Shown: positions 6,915 through 63,982 of the stretch, piece after piece
Layout of the letters: each line of letters begins with the position of its first letter
Position numbering within the stretch: the first letter of the stretch is position 1
Virus record (IMG/VR): IMGVR_UViG_3300033156_000692
DNA length: 64,000 nt
Strand: one strand, 5' to 3'
Source of the DNA: a virus
Notes under the pieces: generated by a model
Seen by the model: the letters and a program-made list of their open reading frames with translations, nothing else
What the model was told of the DNA's origin: nothing
The model's database searches: none
Translations under genes and position numbers: made by a program

Positions 6915-7373
6915 TCACTTTCCCTCCTCTCCCCTTGCTATAGTCAGCAGGGCGGCCCTACAGACAGCAGCGGAGAACGTCTTCTCTTCAACGTCCGCCA
7001 CTATCTTCTCGTCGCCATCCCAAACAAATACCACCCACTTCCGGCATTTCTCCCAGGGGCGTGGGGACATGATGTCCAATGTAAAACCGCGTGCTATAAG
7101 GTCGTTTATCACATCATGGGCGGCCAGTACCTCAGTGGATGGCTCCCAATAATCGCCCTCAAGCCCGGTATTAATGTCGTACTTCCGAAGTCCAAACCGA
7201 GTTATCTTGAAGTCCGTCCCCTCTTCCCAGCCCATTACACGTTCGGCAACCTGGCGGTCAAACTCCGGGCCGGGTTCCAGTCGCATGATTTCCAGTAGTT
7301 CTTTGCCAAGCATTTTCACCCCCTCGTTAGGAGTAAAAAGAGGCCCACCGGGGCAAGCCAGGGTGATGTACAA
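6915..7373 (-). CDS. phage ABA-sandwich-domain-like protein (paralog 2)
   Basis: Shares motifs with 170..565: RQVAERVMGWEE, WEPSTEVLAAHDVI, AVCRAALLTIARGEEGK versus RIIAERVMGWEY, WHPSTDIKAAWEVL, AICRAALLAVMEAGNAK. Confidence 0.5.
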   Translation of the reverse strand: MYITLACPGGPLFTPNEGVKMLGKELLEIMRLEPGPEFDRQVAERVMGWEEGTDFKITRFGLRKYDINTGLEGDYWEPSTEVLAAHDVINDLIARGFTLDIMSPRPWEKCRKWVVFVWDGDEKIVADVEEKTFSAAVCRAALLTIARGEEGK

Positions 7374-8143: not shown

Positions 8144-9802
8144 TCAAAACGGTGTCTCCGAAGTAAGCAGGGTTGAGGCATCGCCCAACCTTGCGATAAA
8201 CCACTCTCCCGGGTGATAAACTATGTTCTCCCCAGGAGAGGACTCCCAACTGGGGGAGGAATCCTCCGGCTCTTCGCTCATATATCGCACAATGGCTGTA
8301 ACTACGTTATCTACGTGCTCCCTCCAAGTGGGCTCGACCCGAGCCACCCGAGGCAGTCCAATGACTACGTGATTGGGTCTAGGGCGAACTGGATGTGGGG
8401 GCGATTCGAGCAGGTCAAAGCCCTCGATGGGAATGGAAGCGACCTCACCTCTGTCCTCAGCCAGTCCGTACAGCACTACGGTTATTCCGGCGGCTACTTC
8501 TCGGAAGGTTTCATCCCCCATCAGTCGCTGCTCATATTCCCGTCTTGCTGCAAAATCCCACTCATCCCTGAAGAAGAGTCTGGGGGCACTCAACACGGCC
8601 TCCCCCAGCCCCCAGGCGGCCCGGAGGGAAGGGATCTTTTCCTTCCTCCATCGCCGCCGGAACCGTAGGAAGTACTTCACCTCCTCTCTGGTGAGCCCCC
8701 CAATTTTGATATACTCCCGCGCATACGGCGGAGAATGGTAGACGATGGTTTCTCCCCTGGGGGCATTCAAGACCCGGGACACCAAGTTACGGGCCAACTT
8801 TAAGACGATTTCGGCCATCCGGGGCTCGGCAAATACAGCGGCGGGCGGAGACCGGTACTCGAACCCGTGGGGCTCAGTCCTTACGTCCGACAGGTCGCCG
8901 TATCCGCTCTCCGTTCGAGCGGGGCCGTTCAGTACCGACATGGGGCAACCGATAAATGTGTCCAACATTGAGACGAGTTGTCCCGGGGGGCGCCAGGGTC
9001 GTCCAACCCCAATGTGGATGTGGCCCCCAACGGGGTAGCGCTCCCCAAGGGGGGAGCCATCATAGGCGGCGTACCGCAGGGCGAACCGCTCGAAGATGGA
9101 ACGGATGCTCTCTACCACTCGCGCCGGATCGGTGGATGGGTCCGGCCGGACTTCCATTTGACTCCCGGCTCCGTCTACCCCCAGCGGGCCGAAGCTGCCC
9201 TCGGCCTCGTCTATTACCTCGTAGGCCGCAACCACACGGGGACCATCCCGGCCTATCTCTAGCAGCTCAAACTCGGGGTCACACCCCACAGTTACTTCTA
9301 CGGGAGTAAACTCCTCTGGCCCCGTTTCGGGTTCTAGCGGCTCCAATCCGACGCGCTCCAGTAGCTCGCGCACTAATGGGACGACTGTGTGGGGGACCTC
9401 GCTCCTGTTATGAGTCCAGTCCGTCAGCACAAAACTTTCCAGCTCAGGAAAATACAGTCCCGCGAAGCGCCCATTGACCCGGATGACCCACACCCGCCGG
9501 GGTGAGGGGGTATCTATAAAGGTAATGAGGTTGTCGAAAAACACCAGGTCTGCTATTGCGGCGGACAGATCTATGGTCCGCTCGGCTTGTGCCTGAACCG
9601 TCACGTTGGCGAACACGTAGAATGCCCTTGGTGGAATGTCCAACCCATCCAGGGGAGTTGTGTGGTTCCCCAGGTGCCGGAAGTAGCGCTCCAGGTCCAA
9701 TTCCCGGACCAGGATGGGGAACCCTTCAGTCCACTCCGATGGGGGGCTCTTTAAGGCTTCTGCCCCACCCAGTCCCCGGATAACCACTTCACTCCTCGGC
9801 AT
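8144..9802 (-). CDS. Amidoligase_2-like (glutamine-synthetase/GCS2-fold) protein with N-terminal extension
   Basis: Motifs VGCDPEFELLE (GxExE), GSQMEVRPDP, GGHIHIGVG; parallel to motifs in 10646..11842. Confidence 0.6.
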   Translation of the reverse strand: MPRSEVVIRGLGGAEALKSPPSEWTEGFPILVRELDLERYFRHLGNHTTPLDGLDIPPRAFYVFANVTVQAQAERTIDLSAAIADLVFFDNLITFIDTPSPRRVWVIRVNGRFAGLYFPELESFVLTDWTHNRSEVPHTVVPLVRELLERVGLEPLEPETGPEEFTPVEVTVGCDPEFELLEIGRDGPRVVAAYEVIDEAEGSFGPLGVDGAGSQMEVRPDPSTDPARVVESIRSIFERFALRYAAYDGSPLGERYPVGGHIHIGVGRPWRPPGQLVSMLDTFIGCPMSVLNGPARTESGYGDLSDVRTEPHGFEYRSPPAAVFAEPRMAEIVLKLARNLVSRVLNAPRGETIVYHSPPYAREYIKIGGLTREEVKYFLRFRRRWRKEKIPSLRAAWGLGEAVLSAPRLFFRDEWDFAARREYEQRLMGDETFREVAAGITVVLYGLAEDRGEVASIPIEGFDLLESPPHPVRPRPNHVVIGLPRVARVEPTWREHVDNVVTAIVRYMSEEPEDSSPSWESSPGENIVYHPGEWFIARLGDASTLLTSETPF

Positions 9803-10646
9803 ACTTCACCTCCTTTTCGCGGGGCGGGGGCAAGACGACGGGATCGTAAAATCCCAGGATCTCAGTGAGGTAACAGTCATCGCAGGCGTAGATCGCAGCG
9901 TCAGACCGGTACACTACGTCCTCACGGAATCGGCCGCAGATCTCGCAAATCCTCTCGCGACGCGCTGTGGTGTTAGCACTCTCCAGGGGTATGTACTCTT
10001 CGTCGTCATCGCGGTAGCTGTACGCGCCCCAAAACCTCTTGCGGCCGCGACGGGGCCAATCCCAGTCCCCGTAGTACTTGTAAAACTTGTAAGAGTGGTT
10101 GGAATACAAGATTCCGTTCTCCTCGATGGAACTCCCGATCCACAAAATGGAGCCGTCCGGCCACAGGAAGGCGAACTTGCCACCCACGTGGGAGATCAAC
10201 CGCTGGATGGAGTCTTTCCCCAGACTATCCCGAACCTCGGGCTGGGACAGGACCTCCATCACGAACTGGGCCGTGTCGGACCAACGCCCGGCATAGGCGT
10301 AGCCGCCTATGGTGCCGTTGTGACCGACCACGGGCAGCCGGGTCCGGAGCTTGGTAGCGCCGACCCAATCCTCCCGGTCGGTCAGCGGGAACGGATGGCA
10401 GTTAGCGCCGTCTCTGTGGCCGTGAGTGGCCAGCCGGAAGTGTATGATGGCTCCGTCCTCTTTTCGGACGGAGCTACGGAACTCATGGTAGAACCGGGCA
10501 AACGACGTGTAGCCCTTTTTGATCAGGATGTGCCGCCCTTTGGCCACGGCGAATCCGGCACCATCGGGGTTCCCCTCGAACCCGTTTAGTAGGTGCTCCT
10601 TTGGCGGGAGATTAACTCCCTTGGGTTTAGCGATAAGTAGGCACAC
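9789..10646 (-). CDS. YafJ-type class-II (Ntn) glutamine amidotransferase with C-terminal zinc ribbon
   Basis: GTG start immediately followed by a Cys codon (N-terminal Cys nucleophile); DGAGFAV, IIHFRLATHG, CHPFP, VVGHNGTIGGY align to the YafJ family; C-terminal CEICGRF...CDDC. The start overlaps the upstream stop (TAGTG) with AAGGAGGTG RBS. Confidence 0.65.
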   Translation of the reverse strand: MCLLIAKPKGVNLPPKEHLLNGFEGNPDGAGFAVAKGRHILIKKGYTSFARFYHEFRSSVRKEDGAIIHFRLATHGHRDGANCHPFPLTDREDWVGATKLRTRLPVVGHNGTIGGYAYAGRWSDTAQFVMEVLSQPEVRDSLGKDSIQRLISHVGGKFAFLWPDGSILWIGSSIEENGILYSNHSYKFYKYYGDWDWPRRGRKRFWGAYSYRDDDEEYIPLESANTTARRERICEICGRFREDVVYRSDAAIYACDDCYLTEILGFYDPVVLPPPREKEVKYAEE

Positions 10647-11842
10647 TAAACTACCACCTCCTTTTTTCTTTCCCAGTACGGCACCCAAATGCCCAAGATT
10701 TTCATGTACTGGACTAGGTGCCCGTACCGGTTTGTTTGCTCTAGCCACCCGCAAAACACGTCCCACTGCATTGCCAGCGCCGAGAACATCCGGGCAAAGT
10801 GGGCAACGGCATCAGCAAACTGTAGGAACGCGATGAACTCTTGGGGGTCGGTTGTGGACCGGAACACCCGGAGTTCCACGGTCCCCTCGGACGTTGCCGT
10901 ATTTACGGCTAGGTATCTATTGCTGGGCGCATAATGCCAGTTTTTTGCTATGTCGTGGGGCGCATACGGGAGCAGCTTGGCCCACTGCGAGTTCCAGCGG
11001 CCTGCGATCTTGCATATCTCATCCCAGCACCTAGTAAAGAACACGGCCAGCCGGTCCACCCCTCGCCTTCCTAGAAACTGGCGGGATAGGTGAATATGTA
11101 TCCCACACGTGCTTGCCGAGTACCCTCCGGCTTCCTGGACGGCTTCAACAACCAGGGCCGGGGAGTATCGGTGCCAGCGTTTCCAGGTGGTGGGGTGAAA
11201 CACGATCTCAAACCCGTTCTGCAACGACCCATCATATTTGAAGTAAACCCGCTCATTGTTTGTGAGTTCATTCGGCAAATAGTCTAGCAATGCTTCGGCC
11301 ACGCCCTCGGGGTCGTCGTTGCACTCCACCTCCAGCTCAACGCCGAGGTAGAGCGTGTTCTCATACGGTTCCTTTGCGAAGACTGGGCACGGTTTGTAGC
11401 CGTAGTCCTCAATCGGCCCAGGCGGCGGGGCGCAGCCCTCACAATACGGTCCCTCACCCCCACGGGTGTAAACGGCATCCTCGCTCCAGATGGTCGCCCC
11501 GCACGCTATACATGTCGTGCAGTATTCGTACCAACATCCTTCACAATACTCCTCACCATCAGGAGTCATAAGGGCACTATCCCGATGTACCACCTCCCCA
11601 CAGGACGCACACTCAACGTAGTTTTCGTACCAGCAGTCCTCACATATAAGCTCCCCATTGGGGGCCTCCACGAGGCTATCCCGATCCACAATACGACCGC
11701 ACCGGGGACATCGAGCAAACAACTCCCAATAGCACTCGGCGCAGTAATTCTTGTGGTCTGACGCCTCGAACGCCCACCCCGCCCACATAAGCTGGCCACA
11801 CCTCGCGCAGGCCACGGTGGGCGGCGCCACCGTTTCGGACAT
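10646..11842 (-). CDS. Amidoligase_2 family protein with N-terminal triple zinc-ribbon (CxxC pairs)
   Basis: LGVELEVE and GIHIHLS motifs characteristic of the putative amidoligase family; N-terminus holds 6 CxxC pairs; GGGGAGGTG RBS. Confidence 0.7.
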   Translation of the reverse strand: MSETVAPPTVACARCGQLMWAGWAFEASDHKNYCAECYWELFARCPRCGRIVDRDSLVEAPNGELICEDCWYENYVECASCGEVVHRDSALMTPDGEEYCEGCWYEYCTTCIACGATIWSEDAVYTRGGEGPYCEGCAPPPGPIEDYGYKPCPVFAKEPYENTLYLGVELEVECNDDPEGVAEALLDYLPNELTNNERVYFKYDGSLQNGFEIVFHPTTWKRWHRYSPALVVEAVQEAGGYSASTCGIHIHLSRQFLGRRGVDRLAVFFTRCWDEICKIAGRWNSQWAKLLPYAPHDIAKNWHYAPSNRYLAVNTATSEGTVELRVFRSTTDPQEFIAFLQFADAVAHFARMFSALAMQWDVFCGWLEQTNRYGHLVQYMKILGIWVPYWERKKEVVV

Positions 11843-11862: not shown

Positions 11863-11887
11863 AAAAAATCCGCCCCAAACGGGGCGG
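11863..11887 (-). terminator. intrinsic terminator (CCGCCCC-AAAC-GGGGCGG then TTTTTT on minus strand)
   Basis: Perfect 7-bp GC stem with 4-nt loop (11870..11887) followed by a 6-nt T-run on the minus strand (plus-strand A-run 11863..11868), just 3' of the tRNA-like element and 20 nt 5' of the amidoligase RBS. Confidence 0.55.
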
Positions 11888-11889
11888 TC

Positions 11890-12008
11890 TGGTGCCCGGG
11901 GCCGGATTTGAACCGGCTCCCCCGGTCTCCCAGGGGCGGACTTTTCCCTGGGGCGGGGACCACAACCTGCCGCCTCGGTGGGGCGTGTTCCCACCACGCC
12001 GCCCGGGC
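11890..12008 (-). ncRNA. tRNA-like element, 119 nt: canonical acceptor stem, D-arm, T-arm (GGTTCAAATCC) and encoded CCA, but about 43 extra nt in the anticodon/variable region
   Basis: Minus-strand sequence: GCCCGGG..GCGT-GGTGGGAAC-ACGC......GCCGG-TTCAAAT-CCGGC-CCCGGGC-A-CCA. No canonical anticodon arm can be folded by hand. Confidence 0.35.
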
Positions 12009-12096
12009 AAAAGACGCCTACGTCTGTGGGGCTCTAGCCACGGCCACGGGATGTTTCACCCGTAACCGTGGGGGCCATTGGGGGCCATTTTTAAAC

Positions 12097-12633
12097 CTAC
12101 CTCGGGGCAGCCTTTTGCCATAGAAGATGGGTTAATTCCCACACAACATATTCTTGGGCATGTTCCCATCCATAAAAGAACCGGTCCACGCCAACATTTG
12201 GGAGCACCGACACCCCAATGAGAGTGCCCCACTCGGGCCACTCCCTCTTCCATGTGCATACATAGAAAACGGGACCACCATACATGCGCGGTGATAACAG
12301 TATTTCATCGTATTCTAGTGGAGTTTTGTAAACATCACGGAACATGTCCGCCCAAGGCGGCGGACTATTGTCGACCCAATTGTAATGGATTATGTGAGCG
12401 AACCCTATTTTAAGATCTTTCGCCAACTCCTCCAGCCGATATATAATCCCCCCTGACTTCTTCACTTCGATAACCTTTGTGGAATCCAATTTTTCGATAT
12501 CGCACAACCCCAGTTTAGCTACCCTCAGCGCAAACGAGCAATTAGAACGCAATGCCGGGGGAAACTCCACCCACAGGTCCCTTCCTCCGGCCGCGTCTTC
12601 ACGCACAAGTATCAACTTCGCTTCGGTCTTCAT
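12097..12633 (-). CDS. hypothetical protein in a lower-GC segment
   Basis: ORF; local GC visibly lower than the surroundings. Confidence 0.45.
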   Translation of the reverse strand: MKTEAKLILVREDAAGGRDLWVEFPPALRSNCSFALRVAKLGLCDIEKLDSTKVIEVKKSGGIIYRLEELAKDLKIGFAHIIHYNWVDNSPPPWADMFRDVYKTPLEYDEILLSPRMYGGPVFYVCTWKREWPEWGTLIGVSVLPNVGVDRFFYGWEHAQEYVVWELTHLLWQKAAPR

Positions 12634-62866: not shown

Positions 62867-62938
62867 TACGCCCGGGAGGATTCGAACCCCCAGCGTGGGG
62901 TTAGAAGCCCCACATGTTCTCCATTACACCACGGGCGC
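62867..62938 (-). tRNA. tRNA-Arg (anticodon UCU); CCA not encoded
   Basis: Hand-folded cloverleaf: acceptor GCGCCCG/CGGGCGU, anticodon loop CUUCUAA, T-loop TTCGAAT. Confidence 0.7.
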
Positions 62939-63016
62939 TGGCGGGGACGACGGGATTCGAACCCGTGGCCTTCGGCTCGACAAGCCGACGTGCACTCCAG
63001 GCTGCACCACGCCCCC
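62939..63016 (-). tRNA. tRNA-Asp (GUC); CCA encoded
   Basis: Anticodon stem TCGGC/GCCGA, loop TTGTCGA, T-arm ACGGG-TTCGAAT-CCCGT. Confidence 0.75.
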
Positions 63017-63019
63017 GTG

Positions 63020-63097
63020 TGGAGAGAGGGGTGGGATTTGAACCCACGAATACCCGGGTTGCAACCGGGTGCCTTAAACCTGCTTGGCTACCCCCTC
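63020..63097 (-). tRNA. tRNA-Cys (GCA); CCA encoded; discriminator U
   Basis: Anticodon stem CCCGG/CCGGG, loop TTGCAAC, T-loop TTCAAAT. Confidence 0.7.
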
Positions 63098-63174
63098 TGG
63101 TGGGCTGTGGAGGACTCGAACCCCCAACCCTCGGCTCCGAAGGCCGATGTTCTGGTCCATTGAGCTAACAGCCC
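63098..63174 (-). tRNA. tRNA-Arg (UCG); CCA encoded
   Basis: Anticodon stem TCGGC/GCCGA, loop CTTCGGA; 3' end abuts the previous tRNA 5' end with zero spacer. Confidence 0.65.
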
Positions 63175-63176
63175 TC

Positions 63177-63251
63177 TGTCCCCGGGCGGATTTGAACCGC
63201 CGATCTCCGGGTTGAAAGCCCGACGGGTTGACCTGACTACCCCACGGGGAC
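63177..63251 (-). tRNA. tRNA-Glu (UUC); CCA not encoded
   Basis: D-stem GGGT/ACCC, anticodon loop CTTTCAA, T-arm GGCGG-TTCAAAT-CCGCC. Confidence 0.7.
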
Positions 63252-63327
63252 TGGTGGGCCGCGCAGGGCTCGAACCTGCGGCCTCCTGGTTAAAAGCCAG
63301 GAGCTCTGCCGACTGAGCTAGCGGCCC
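63252..63327 (-). tRNA. tRNA-Lys (UUU); CCA encoded
   Basis: GGGCCGC-TA-GCTC-AGTCGGC-AGAGC..CCTGG-CTTTTAA-CCAGG.. Confidence 0.75.
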
Positions 63328-63390
63328 TTGACAATTCATCAAGATAAGGCTAACGCCATTAGCCTTATCTCGTATTGGTGTCAAGTTCTT
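63328..63390. other. nested inverted repeats in the tRNA-array spacer (AGATAAGGCTA-N7-TAGCCTTATCT inside CTTGACA...TGTCAAG)
   Basis: 11-bp perfect inner stem and 7-bp outer stem seen directly. Confidence 0.6.
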
Positions 63391-63467
63391 GGCGGGCCGG
63401 GAGGGAATCGAACCCCCACACACCGGATTTGGAGTCCGGCGCTCTAGCCAATTGGAGCTACCGACCC
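63390..63467 (-). tRNA. tRNA-Trp (CCA); CCA encoded
   Basis: Anticodon stem CCGGA/TCCGG, loop CTCCAAA. Confidence 0.7.
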
Positions 63468-63543
63468 TGGTGGGTTGCGAGGGAATCGAACCCCCAGCCT
63501 GCCGGTTAAGAGCCGGCTGCTCTGCCAATTGAGCTAGCAACCC
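63468..63543 (-). tRNA. tRNA-Lys (CUU); CCA encoded
   Basis: Anticodon stem GCCGG/CCGGC, loop CTCTTAA; abuts tRNA-Trp. Confidence 0.7.
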
Positions 63544-63619
63544 TGGCGCGAGCTGCGGGATTCGAACCCGCAACCTGTGCCCTGGCAAGGCACTGTGCTA
63601 CCGATTGCACCAAGCCCGC
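63544..63619 (-). tRNA. tRNA-Gly (GCC); CCA encoded
   Basis: Anticodon stem GTGCC/GGCAC, loop TTGCCAG. Confidence 0.7.
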
Positions 63620-63694
63620 TGGTCGGGGAGGGCGGGATCGAACCGCCGACCTCGTGCTCCCAAGGCACGCACGCTTCCGCTGCGCTACTCCCCG
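63620..63694 (-). tRNA. tRNA-Pro (UGG); CCA encoded; C1-G72
   Basis: Anticodon stem CGTGC/GCACG, loop CTTGGGA; C1:G72 pair typical of bacterial tRNA-Pro. Confidence 0.75.
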
Positions 63695-63750
63695 TGTGTC
63701 CTTCTGCGGGGGTCAATTTTGGCCATAAATGTCCTCCACAGAAGGATAAT

Positions 63751-63827
63751 TGGTGGTCCCGGGGGGATTTGAACCCACCGCCATCAGGTTGAGAACCTGA
63801 CATCCTAGTCCGCTAGACGACGGGACC
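63751..63827 (-). tRNA. tRNA-Glu (CUC); CCA encoded
   Basis: Glu-type D-arm TCGTCTAGCGGACTAGGA, anticodon stem TCAGG/CCTGA, loop TTCTCAA. Confidence 0.65.
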
Positions 63828-63903
63828 TGGCTGCGGGGGTGGGACTCGAACCCACGACCGCCCGGTTAACAGCCGGATGCTCTCCCTGCTGAGCTACCCC
63901 GCA
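63828..63903 (-). tRNA. tRNA-Asn (GUU); CCA encoded
   Basis: Anticodon stem TCCGG/CCGGG, loop CTGTTAA. Confidence 0.7.
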
Positions 63904-63907
63904 ATCC

Positions 63908-63982
63908 TGGAGCGACCGGCGGGAGTCGAACCCGCGTTGCTGGCTTGGAAGGCCAGGGTCTTACCACTTAGACGACGGTCGC
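63908..63982 (-). tRNA. tRNA-Gly (UCC); CCA encoded; discriminator U
   Basis: Anticodon stem CTGGC/GCCAG, loop CTTCCAA. Confidence 0.7.

Follow-up and report, generated by a model that had tools for sequence, protein, structure and literature searches.

The usual view of phage tRNA genes is that they help with codon usage or make good the tRNAs that host defences destroy. In mascRNA and the plant mitochondrial t-elements, acceptor/T-arm mimicry is kept while anticodon function is lost, and RNase P cleavage sets the RNA ends; these RNAs are eukaryotic or organellar, and differ from the element described here in being unrelated to it in sequence. Phage T4 carries RNAC and RNAD in its tRNA gene cluster. 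Both are phage-encoded small stable RNAs of unknown function (PMC9697503). Irregular allo-tRNA-like sequences are tRNA-derived; their extra arms are long, and five stems may meet at their junctions. Some are unusable in translation, and non-decoding roles are suspected (PMC7609411). A phage RNA that kept only the tRNA parts read at the molecule's ends, and dropped those used in decoding, would suggest a different use of tRNA shape: as a decoy, a carrier or a processing signal.

Here we analyse a candidate for such an RNA in a 64,000-nt window (the whole stretch of phage DNA studied). It has no sequence relation to T4 RNAC or RNAD and, unlike them, stands alone, far from the phage tRNA cluster, with a full tRNA-Leu-like outer shell. 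Whereas allo-tRNAs are bacterial, serine-type and have 8/4 or 9/3 acceptor/T geometry, the element is phage-borne, leucine-type and 7/5. With the tRNA-gene attP sites of temperate phages it shares an exact tRNA-gene 3′ end followed by a terminator, but it keeps the 5′ half of the tRNA shape as well, has no nearby integrase and lies amid lytic-type gene content.

Architecture of the element and its kinship with tRNA-Leu

An earlier note on this DNA had described a 119-nt minus-strand element with acceptor, D arm, T arm and encoded CCA, and the sequence reads exactly so. For element position i, the window coordinate is 12009 - i; the features of the locus, in order of transcription, are:

12009..12025, minus strand: small hairpin AGACG-UAGG-CGUCU, then UUU, its last base directly before G1 (sequence; forms in the 261-nt fold)
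11890..12008, minus strand: the whole tRNA-Leu-like element, encoded CCA included (119 nt; sequence and covariance models R1 and R2)
12002..12008, minus strand: 5′ acceptor strand GCCCGGG, element 1-7 (7/7 Watson-Crick with 11894-11900)
11983..12001, minus strand: C8 G9 and D arm GCGU-GGUGGGAAC-ACGC, element 8-26, D arm 10-26 (sequence, alignment to tRNA-Leu)
11960..11982, minus strand: anticodon-arm position, a CCAC/GUGG 4-bp stem with a 14-nt loop, element 27-49 (alignment by R1 and R2)
11919..11959, minus strand: variable-arm position, a 41-nt hairpin of 14 GC-rich bp with the 10-nt loop AAAAGUCCGC, element 50-90 (MFE and centroid folds)
11901..11917, minus strand: T arm GCCGG-UUCAAAU-CCGGC, element 92-108 (sequence; canonical T loop, 5/5 Watson-Crick)
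11890..11900, minus strand: 3′ acceptor strand CCCGGGC (element 109-115), discriminator A73 (A116) and encoded CCA (117-119) (sequence)
11863..11887, minus strand: intrinsic terminator CCGCCCC-GUUU-GGGGCGG (11887-11870), then A and U6 (terminator scan; 7 GC pairs)
11859-11848, minus strand: Shine-Dalgarno sequence AAGGGGAGGUGG (read from sequence)
11842, minus strand: amidoligase ATG, downstream of the terminator

The outer parts are those of a cloverleaf. A 7-bp acceptor stem abuts a 5-bp T stem with a UUCRANY T loop (UUCAAAU), followed by discriminator and CCA. Across the acceptor, D and T stems, each of the 16 base pairs is Watson-Crick, and nothing in the T loop, at A73 or in the CCA departs from the canonical form. 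The D arm has the 4+9+4 size of tRNA-Leu and retains G18G19 and A21. The absence of a normal anticodon arm, also claimed earlier, was borne out by the model alignments: the 5-bp stem that closes a 7-nt loop, with U33 and a purine at 37, of a standard cloverleaf has no counterpart in the element, which lacks both the 7-nt loop and a U33. Both R1 and R2 read the hairpin at 50-90 as a variable arm with an insert of 32-33 nt, and against class II tRNA-Leu (84-89 nt) the size excess is ~32 nt, so that the ~43 extra nucleotides first estimated must be revised downwards. Despite G18G19, the tertiary core is altered: U8, A14, A15 and U48, invariant in an alignment of 23 tRNA-Leu genes (A3), are C8, G14, G15 and A48 here. 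Changes at invariant tRNA positions are confined to this core and the anticodon region.

A second contig from the same sample carries a base-for-base copy, so the element is not an assembly artefact. Two strain-variant contigs differ by indels only, with no point differences, and identity between them is thus uninformative on constraint. Elsewhere in the window, recurring 11-13-mers of the element sit inside coding regions and look like chance.

The closest likeness is to bacterial class II tRNA-Leu, especially tRNA-Leu(UAA), with which the element shares an identical acceptor, T arm and A73-CCA, a D arm of equal length that likewise has G18G19 and A21, an additional arm preceding the T arm, and the five-helix class II cloverleaf shape. 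It differs in its lack of a 5-bp stem with a 7-nt loop, in the changes at U8, A14, A15 and U48, in its 41-nt 'variable arm' and in its ~32 nt of added length. The 25 nt that comprise the T arm, 3′ acceptor strand and A73 (28 nt counting CCA) match 25 genomic loci exactly: 20 tRNA-Leu(UAA) genes, four archaeal tRNA-Phe genes (L008, L013, L017 and L023) and one tRNA-Leu(CAA) call (L016). The 5′ acceptor strand GCCCGGG is also the same in tRNA-Leu(UAA) genes (alignment A2). Covariance models of tRNA-Leu match the element over its full length, R1 at 41.0 bits and R2, which was built from seven tRNA-Leu genes picked without regard to similarity to the element, at 35.6 bits over 11890-12008 (rough E ~9e-7 per 64-kb window). 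The 13 real tRNAs of the phage score 31-47 bits, a range that includes the R2 score. An element like this lies well outside what chance would produce.

General detectors gave a different picture. ARAGORN in default mode called the 13 other tRNAs and not the element, and at the gathering threshold Rfam (29 bits for tRNA, RF00005) had no match in it; with E-value cut-offs the best match from the tRNA clan was tRNA-Sec, at 18.9 bits and to the 3′ half only. Standard annotation pipelines thus miss the element. Covariance scores below threshold had been put forward earlier as evidence that would count against a tRNA-like element; the scores of the Rfam tRNA clan do lie below 19 bits against the required 29, and the ARAGORN default does miss it, but R1 and R2 align end to end. 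The weak Rfam matches (SpF41, TLS-PK3, tRNA-Sec and mascRNA, the last as mascRNA-menRNA at 14.4 bits) are far under their thresholds, owe their scores to the generic T arm and the terminator alone, and were set aside. A tmRNA was likewise rejected: the ARAGORN tmRNA search was negative, and pair 3:70 is C:G rather than G3:U70.

As for charging, the element has A73 (A116), the main bacterial leucine determinant (PMC9976931), and leucylation does not need an anticodon arm (PMC2377443, PMC9976931). By contrast, U8:A14 and the Levitt pair 15:48 (A15:U48 in tRNA-Leu), reported as critical for leucylation and LeuRS recognition (PMC2377443, PMC9976931), are changed in the element on both sides of each pair, which makes leucine charging doubtful.

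The exact 3′ match also bears on the suggestion in the earlier note of an att-core relic; on such a reading the phage would have retained the 3′ portion of a tRNA-Leu gene of its host for integration. In support of this idea, tRNA-Leu(UAA) genes from many bacteria share their 3′-terminal 25 nt (28 with CCA) with the element, and element 64-119 can be read as the 3′ part of tRNA-Leu(UAA) from inside the anticodon loop onwards (AAAA-GUCCG-variable arm-T arm). An attP site, however, needs neither the complementary 5′ acceptor strand nor the D arm, both of which are present, and U48 is changed to A. As had been stated earlier, there is no integrase nearby: neither an integrase nor a recombinase was found in 37 ORFs scanned, both neighbours of the element included (~6 kb of the 70-kb source contig lie outside the window). 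The gene content looks lytic (DnaB, NrdD, 13 tRNAs, contractile tail). Overall we give the attP reading scarcely any probability.

Folding, flanks and the amidoligase cassette

The fold of the whole element is no more stable than that of shuffled sequences (z = -1.3). In the MFE fold, positions 13-19 pair with 27-33 in a 7-bp hairpin that takes the place of the D arm and would consume G18G19, and the middle (27-49) has many alternative folds within 2 kcal/mol. The strong terminator with U6 that the earlier note had placed directly after the element was recovered by the terminator scan, and it forms in the 149-nt fold.

The element is intergenic, directly upstream of an Amidoligase_2 / GAT-II / COOH-NH2-ligase cassette. 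From the terminator U run to the amidoligase ATG there are only ~20 nt, and these contain the Shine-Dalgarno sequence, so the cassette must be transcribed through the element and its terminator. This short distance favours a cis-acting processing or attenuation module, in which the tRNA-like fold and terminator together would set the level of amidoligase mRNA via RNase P cleavage or via competition between terminator and antiterminator. Such a module would also fit the small hairpins on both sides of the element and the recurrence of the terminator 5′ strand CCGCCCC at 53-59 and 70-76 (three copies within ~70 nt, the terminator counted); folds that pair the terminator 3′ strand with these internal copies are less stable than the minimum by only 3.2 and 5.9 kcal/mol. 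Near-equal alternative folds are, however, expected of a sequence of 75% G+C, and an attenuator needs neither an encoded A73-CCA nor a canonical T loop. The closest homolog of the cassette has a plain 40-nt spacer with no such leader, and none of 80 viral amidoligase loci has one. A cis-acting role is therefore improbable, though it deserves some weight.

The element lies immediately upstream of the cassette, and the earlier note had raised the option that it is a scaffold or substrate for the adjacent ligases; a carrier RNA for these enzymes is a related idea. The amidoligase N-terminus carries an array of CxxC zinc ribbons, which could putatively bind nucleic acid. Comparison with other loci went against the proposal. 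The only close relative of the cassette, L002 (amidoligase 51% identity, next gene 77%), has no tRNA-like element upstream, and three further loci, L003 and L004 among the loci examined, lack it too; at the 80 IMG/VR loci only three tRNAs occur within 4 kb, all of ordinary length (75-76 nt) and none abutting the gene, and no tRNA lies near the cassette in the annotated phages that have it. No conserved position beside homologous cassettes was thus found at L002, L003, L004, the 80 IMG/VR loci or in the annotated phages. At the locus itself, a strong terminator lies between the RNA and the cassette. A general link between the element and the amidoligase cassette is not supported and is already largely refuted, and we consider a ligase-associated RNA highly unlikely. 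On the other side of the element, a 178-aa ORF upstream has no homolog among 5.8 billion proteins, nor in the phage records.

Elongated tRNA-Leu-bodied genes in viral contigs

Searches for homologs of the element itself were negative. With megablast and blastn against 50,697 phage records (INPHARED), only T-arm-sized matches were found, and IMG/VR scans with an exact 28-mer, a gapped acceptor/T-arm pattern, a variable-arm/T-arm 27-mer and a C8/G14-specific pattern gave no homolog. Among the phage records and IMG/VR contigs searched, the element is a single unconserved case, which rules out a covariation test of the element. A contig from a sister sample (L273), considered as a possible relative, proved AT-rich and unrelated. 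In a metagenome scan with a loose pattern, the matches listed were ordinary tRNAs and apparent tmRNA 3′ ends, none of them with acceptor pairing; given the great abundance of tRNA 3′ ends, this list says nothing on whether the element has homologs.

The wider class was visible with a pattern of tRNA-Leu-type D arm, 55-85 nt gap, T arm, 10 nt and ACCA, a 7/7 acceptor stem being the further mark of the class. In the window this pattern gave one match, versus none in 100 shuffles, a comparison that is circular for the element, from which the pattern was written. In IMG/VR there were 121 pattern matches, 98 of them with a 7/7 acceptor stem, and for these 98 the pattern does carry information; the viral genes so identified are 106-136 nt long. 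Elongated tRNA-Leu-bodied genes are common in viral contigs. They resemble the element in being phage-encoded and in having a tRNA-Leu-type D arm, a perfect acceptor, a T arm, A73-CCA and an extra structured middle. They differ in that the middle is unrelated in sequence and that U8, A14 and A15 are kept; C8/G14 as in the element was found in none of them. One family of 111 nt, present in 68 contigs, is likewise without an anticodon loop, and base changes in the helices of its insert compensate one another, so that at least one anticodon-less tRNA-Leu-bodied phage family is under structural selection.

These genes also bear on whether the element is a real decoding tRNA, functional after removal of an intervening sequence or through an unusual fold. 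Genes of the tRNA-Leu(UAA) type whose anticodon loop holds an insert of 30-50 nt occur in many viral contigs, within tRNA arrays that have no other tRNA-Leu(UAA). The phage studied here encodes 13 ordinary tRNAs at 62867-63982 (ARAGORN), as the earlier note had counted, and none of these is a tRNA-Leu. With its intron mode, ARAGORN reads the element as tRNA-Gly(ccc) with a 24-nt intron. This solution is poor: its D and anticodon stems contain mismatches, and its intron is at a non-canonical site. Nor is the mode discriminating. It assigned arbitrary anticodons to 61 of 63 sequences, among them 60 of the 62 elongated viral ones other than the element, and we discarded the call as evidence because the mode accepts almost anything. 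No removal of a single segment gives a canonical anticodon arm, this tRNA-Gly(ccc) being the only outcome. The 3′ strand GUCCG has no CGGAC-like 5′ partner, there is no U33 context, and neither an RNA ligase nor a splicing endonuclease was found in the 37 ORFs scanned. Of 14 elongated viral genes scored with the Rfam tRNA model, 8 passed (39-54 bits); the 119-nt element did not. Several of the elongated genes sit in tRNA arrays and resemble tRNA-Leu(UAA) with an anticodon-loop insert, which the element does not. A tRNA with an insertion or intron, one of the options first raised, is thus only weakly tenable, and a decoding role is very unlikely. The element is tRNA-Leu-derived but has no 7-nt anticodon loop and an altered core, and it therefore cannot decode; a tRNA mimic is the most probable reading.

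As a single unconserved case the element carries modest weight alone. The commonness of elongated tRNA-Leu-bodied viral genes, together with one selected anticodon-less family, adds interest, and because such genes are common and at least one such family is under structural selection, the wider question is testable.

A proposed acceptor-end mimic

The explanation that we favour, tentatively, is that the element is a gene in its own right that descends from a class II tRNA-Leu, with tRNA-Leu(UAA) the nearest in likeness, and that its RNA is matured like a tRNA and works via its acceptor end. The element would be co-transcribed with the leftward genes that precede it. RNase P would cleave before G1, leaving the upstream RNA to end in the small hairpin and U run, and termination followed by trimming would produce the CCA end. 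The expected product is a stable ~119-nt RNA active through its acceptor/T-arm half, which might serve as a decoy or alternative substrate for proteins that recognise tRNA ends and the elbow, such as RNase P, the CCA-adding enzyme, an aminoacyl-tRNA synthetase or toxins of the host that act on tRNA ends, and would not act as a decoder on the ribosome. Its excision may double as an RNA-processing site. A more specific version, to which we give little credence, is that the phage makes this RNA specifically to imitate an acceptor end, its core being remodelled (C8/G14, G15/A48); it would act as a decoy for enzymes of host defence directed at the 3′ ends or acceptor stems of tRNAs, or as a charged aminoacyl carrier off the ribosome that possibly feeds the adjacent ATP-dependent ligases. 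If true, it would define, with the 111-nt family, a class of phage non-decoding tRNA-scaffold RNAs.

Several observations bear on the favoured explanation. Its own terminator and its intergenic position are features of an independent gene. The preserved parts are those that end-processing enzymes read; those on which LeuRS and the ribosome depend have not been kept. Against this, the element is a singleton and is absent from the closest cassette relative, its fold has a z of only -1.3, and the D arm is lost in the MFE fold.

The main rival is a decaying tRNA-Leu pseudogene, a functionless relic of a phage tRNA-Leu that once worked and whose anticodon arm was lost by an insertion or rearrangement of ~32 nt and whose outer stems are intact by chance. 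Decay would be consistent with the failure of general tRNA detectors, the mutated invariant core bases, a middle with no defined fold (and the same z = -1.3), the absence of the element beside the nearest relative of the flanking cassette and of any homolog in the phage records and IMG/VR contigs searched, and the three CCGCCCC copies in ~70 nt, which suggest local duplication. Neutral decay, however, should damage the stems too. Here 16/16 stem pairs survive, as do the T loop, A73 and CCA, whereas the core has changed at no fewer than four invariant positions; the strong terminator is still there. We consider the pseudogene unlikely, but it has a substantial claim. The 111-nt family and the elongated genes may, by analogy, serve as a precedent for an anticodon-less tRNA-Leu-bodied phage RNA such as the favoured explanation proposes, and the covariation within that family shows that selection can maintain RNAs of this kind in phages.

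Descent of the element from tRNA-Leu

The element is a genuine tRNA-like gene that derives from tRNA-Leu and does not decode; it belongs with the already known aberrant tRNAs and tRNA-like RNAs. Transcription around it is oriented leftward. The amidoligase cassette (Amidoligase_2, a GAT-II-like protein and a COOH-NH2 ligase) lies downstream of genes for DnaB, a dCTP-deaminase-like protein, NrdD and an SPFH protein. The features discussed here are:

62867–63982: 13 ordinary tRNAs, none of them tRNA-Leu
12069–12088, minus: perfect tandem repeat ATGGCCCCCA x2, just past the stop codon of the upstream ORF, a 178-aa orphan
12035–12070: hairpin region CCACGG...CCGUGG, following the tandem repeat
11890–12008, minus: the 119-nt element, GCCCGGG-CG-GCGU-GGUGGGAAC-ACGC-...-GCCGG-UUCAAAU-CCGGC-CCCGGGC-A-CCA
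11870–11956, minus: three copies of the heptamer CCGCCCC within ~70 nt (element 53–59, element 70–76 and the 5' strand of the terminator)
10646–11842, minus: gene for the 398-aa Amidoligase_2 protein, with its ATG at 11842
9789–10766, minus: ORF whose listed GTG start overlaps the amidoligase gene

All 16 stem pairs of the element are Watson-Crick (acceptor stem 7/7, D stem 4/4, T stem 5/5), and the canonical T loop (UUCAAAU), A73 and CCA are intact. Two bases past the CCA begins a terminator of seven GC pairs (CCGCCCC-GUUU-GGGGCGG), then A and U6, and beyond it lie the Shine-Dalgarno sequence AAGGGGAGGUGG and the amidoligase start. The element is identical base for base on a second contig from the same sample. 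The tRNA-like architecture described in the earlier note was thus confirmed, and the 13 normal tRNAs that it placed at the other end of the window are real.

A 25-nt query spanning the T arm, 3' acceptor strand and A73 matched exactly at 25 sites in the genomes of 185,579 species. Twenty of these sites are tRNA-Leu(UAA) genes, spread over many phyla, and the remainder are four archaeal tRNA-Phe genes (L008, L013, L017 and L023) and one tRNA-Leu(CAA) call (L016). On alignment, the element and the matched genes have in common the acceptor stem and the size of the D arm (4+9+4, with G18G19 and A21), and the element carries an excess of ~32 nt after the D arm. Covariance model R1, which was derived from 23 tRNA-Leu genes, matched 11890–12008 full-length at 41 bits. 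Since R1 was biased, 15 of its genes having been picked by identity to the element, a second model (R2) was built from 7 tRNA-Leu genes selected independently of that identity; it returned the same alignment at 35.6 bits (rough E ~9e-7 for the window), inside the 31–47 bit range of the phage's own tRNAs. The covariance-model check named in the earlier note therefore gave a split answer: both tRNA-Leu models aligned the whole element, whereas Rfam had zero matches at gathering thresholds and, in permissive mode, only sub-threshold ones (SpF41, 30.6 bits versus 52; tRNA-Sec, 18.9 bits versus 47, in the 3' half).

The exact 3' match would also fit the attP core of a tRNA-Leu gene, and element 64–119 can be read as the 3' part of tRNA-Leu(UAA) from the anticodon loop onwards (AAAA-GUCCG-variable arm-T arm). 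However, the element also has a D arm and a 5' acceptor strand that pairs with the 3' one, and U48 is altered. As had been claimed, no integrase was found near it, nor any RNA ligase or tRNA enzyme, among the 37 window ORFs scanned (the source contig extends ~6 kb beyond the window). The element is, then, probably not an attP core.

The middle region and the altered core

At the position of the anticodon arm, the R1 and R2 alignments place a 4-bp stem (CCAC/GUGG) with a 14-nt loop, and both models treat a 14-bp hairpin at element 50–90, with loop AAAAGUCCGC, as a variable arm carrying a 32–33 nt insert. Neither loop offers a U33/purine-37 context, and so the element RNA, as judged from its sequence, cannot decode; the absence of a normal anticodon arm noted earlier was borne out. 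Four invariant core positions are also altered: U8, A14, A15 and U48 of tRNA-Leu are C, G, G and A in the element. Together with A73 these bases define LeuRS recognition, and leucylation can dispense with the anticodon arm (PMC2377443, PMC9976931).

The unconstrained minimum-free-energy fold (-65.3 kcal/mol) retains the acceptor stem, T arm and long hairpin, while the D arm gives way to a 7-bp hairpin (13–19 with 27–33); a cloverleaf-constrained fold is 7.9 kcal/mol worse. Many alternative folds of the middle lie within 2 kcal/mol of one another, and the element as a whole does not exceed shuffled sequences in stability (z = -1.3).

Default ARAGORN did not call the element, and intron mode proposed a tRNA-Gly(ccc) with a 24-nt intron, which was rejected for its mismatched stems. 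This mode returns a solution, with an arbitrary anticodon, for 61 of 63 sequences (60 of 62 when the element is set aside and only the elongated viral ones are counted) and was therefore given no weight; the suggested intron-bearing tRNA is very unlikely.

Elongated tRNA-Leu-bodied RNAs in viral contigs

Judged by a degenerate pattern applied to IMG/VR (tRNA-Leu-type D arm, 55–85 nt gap, T arm, ACCA), elongated tRNA-Leu-bodied genes are common in viral contigs. Among the matches listed (L031–L150), 98 of 121 had a perfect 7/7 acceptor stem, amounting to 63 distinct sequences of 106–136 nt. Default ARAGORN did not call these genes, the Rfam tRNA model accepted 8 of the 14 tested (39–54 bits), and a literature search on them found no paper. 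Several resemble tRNA-Leu(UAA) with a 30–50 nt hairpin inserted in the anticodon loop (e.g. L036, L040, L049, L059, L116) and are located in tRNA arrays without another tRNA-Leu(UAA); others have very long variable arms. Some of the latter (L053, L100, L037, L063, L068) carry stop-codon or non-leucine anticodons (CUA, UUA, UGG), as read by eye and by ARAGORN intron mode, whose anticodon calls are arbitrary; such genes would fit a role in suppression or recoding, by a tRNA whose body is recognized by a synthetase that disregards the anticodon. One elongated gene has a drum RNA (Rfam RF02958, 60 bits; L064:1382–1477, minus) ~370 nt away.

A 111-nt family on a tRNA-Leu scaffold (L038:858–968, plus strand; L056, L356, L368 and 64 more, L354–L401) was found in 68 IMG/VR contigs, in four diverged lineages, many contigs sharing sample-number series. 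An anticodon loop is entirely absent from this family. Its pseudoknot-like insert has one helix that is invariant, GAGUA/UACUC, and two elements that covary, an inner hairpin and a long-range helix (GAGCUUU/AAAGCUC, GCACAAU/AUUGUGC, GAACUUU/AAAGUUC). Compensatory changes occur in the acceptor stem, inner hairpin and long-range helix, and 15 pairs changed on both sides, a number reached by 0 of 500 shuffles; covariation is thus supported. Such a covarying, anticodon-less family indicates, at the level of sequence, that phages repeatedly maintain non-decoding tRNA-Leu-bodied RNAs, and maintained families of this kind raise the prior for a functional window element. The elongated viral genes have nothing in common with the element in the middle, and none has its C8/G14 core.

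In L354, the 111-nt RNA is flanked by an unknown ORF and a NinG-like gene. A 107-nt tRNA-Leu-bodied sequence (GGAGAAATGGCGGAATAGGCAGACGC...), in which an anticodon arm is not evident, recurs in L032, L044, L051 and ~13 further loci, with few single-base variants only and many contigs sharing sample-number series.

Possible function and genomic setting

The element has lost its decoding arm and four core bases while its stems stay intact. Because every stem is spared, unlike in random decay, we tentatively favour a maintained RNA with tRNA-like maturation, acting via its acceptor/T-arm half. We infer a mechanism in which RNase P would cut before G1, a cleavage that the encoded RCCA would favour; the RNA could serve as a decoy or alternative substrate for putative end-reading partners, and its excision may also process operon RNA. 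A relic pseudogene of tRNA-Leu is a serious rival, if an unlikely one: the element is a singleton, its middle lacks a defined fold, and the nearest relative is without it, but random decay would not be expected to leave 16 of 16 pairs intact. It is improbable that element and terminator form an attenuator or processing module. Transcription of the cassette must pass through the terminator, whose 3' strand can pair with either upstream CCGCCCC in antiterminator folds 3.2–5.9 kcal/mol above the minimum; the leader, however, is not conserved.

The earlier note had also suggested a scaffold or substrate for the adjacent ligases. The closest amidoligase homolog (L002) is 51% identical, and its next gene 77%, yet at its locus the gene upstream is a different one, the spacer measures 40 nt and a tRNA-like element is absent. 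Two more distant amidoligase loci also lack one, and annotated phages carrying the cassette have no tRNA close by. Across 80 IMG/VR loci with amidoligase homologs (4 kb flank each side), R1 found only three ordinary tRNAs of 75–76 nt, none abutting the gene. This absence leaves the suggested role without comparative support, and by these comparisons the element is not an accessory of the cassette.

The Amidoligase_2 protein and 16 aligned homologs (A4) have in common a series of CxxC pairs at the N-terminus, of which six are invariant and a further two nearly invariant. This array matches zinc-ribbon and LIM-like models, suggesting that the amidoligase is fused to a module that binds nucleic acid or protein. 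In L002, the homolog of the 9789–10766 ORF starts MCLLIAKP, which lines up with residue 41 of the window protein (VCLLIAKP); translation probably begins at this residue, which would place a catalytic Cys at the N-terminus, the arrangement of class II glutamine amidotransferases.

The phage of the window is novel and contractile-tailed; none of the GenBank phages is closely related to it, and its TerL is ~30% identical to that of Thermus phages. Contigs of strain variants in the same sample show only indels relative to the window (12097–12633 versus L001; 58016–60665 versus L353), with no point substitutions over 8.6 kb; an in-frame indel of 18 nt affects the upstream 178-aa orphan ORF, and a second indel lies in the tail-fibre region. 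The tandem repeat and hairpin at 12035–12088 may bind a protein or have a regulatory role. Two separate early-region proteins (170–661 and 6915–7373, minus) contain a Phage_ABA_S (ABA sandwich) domain.
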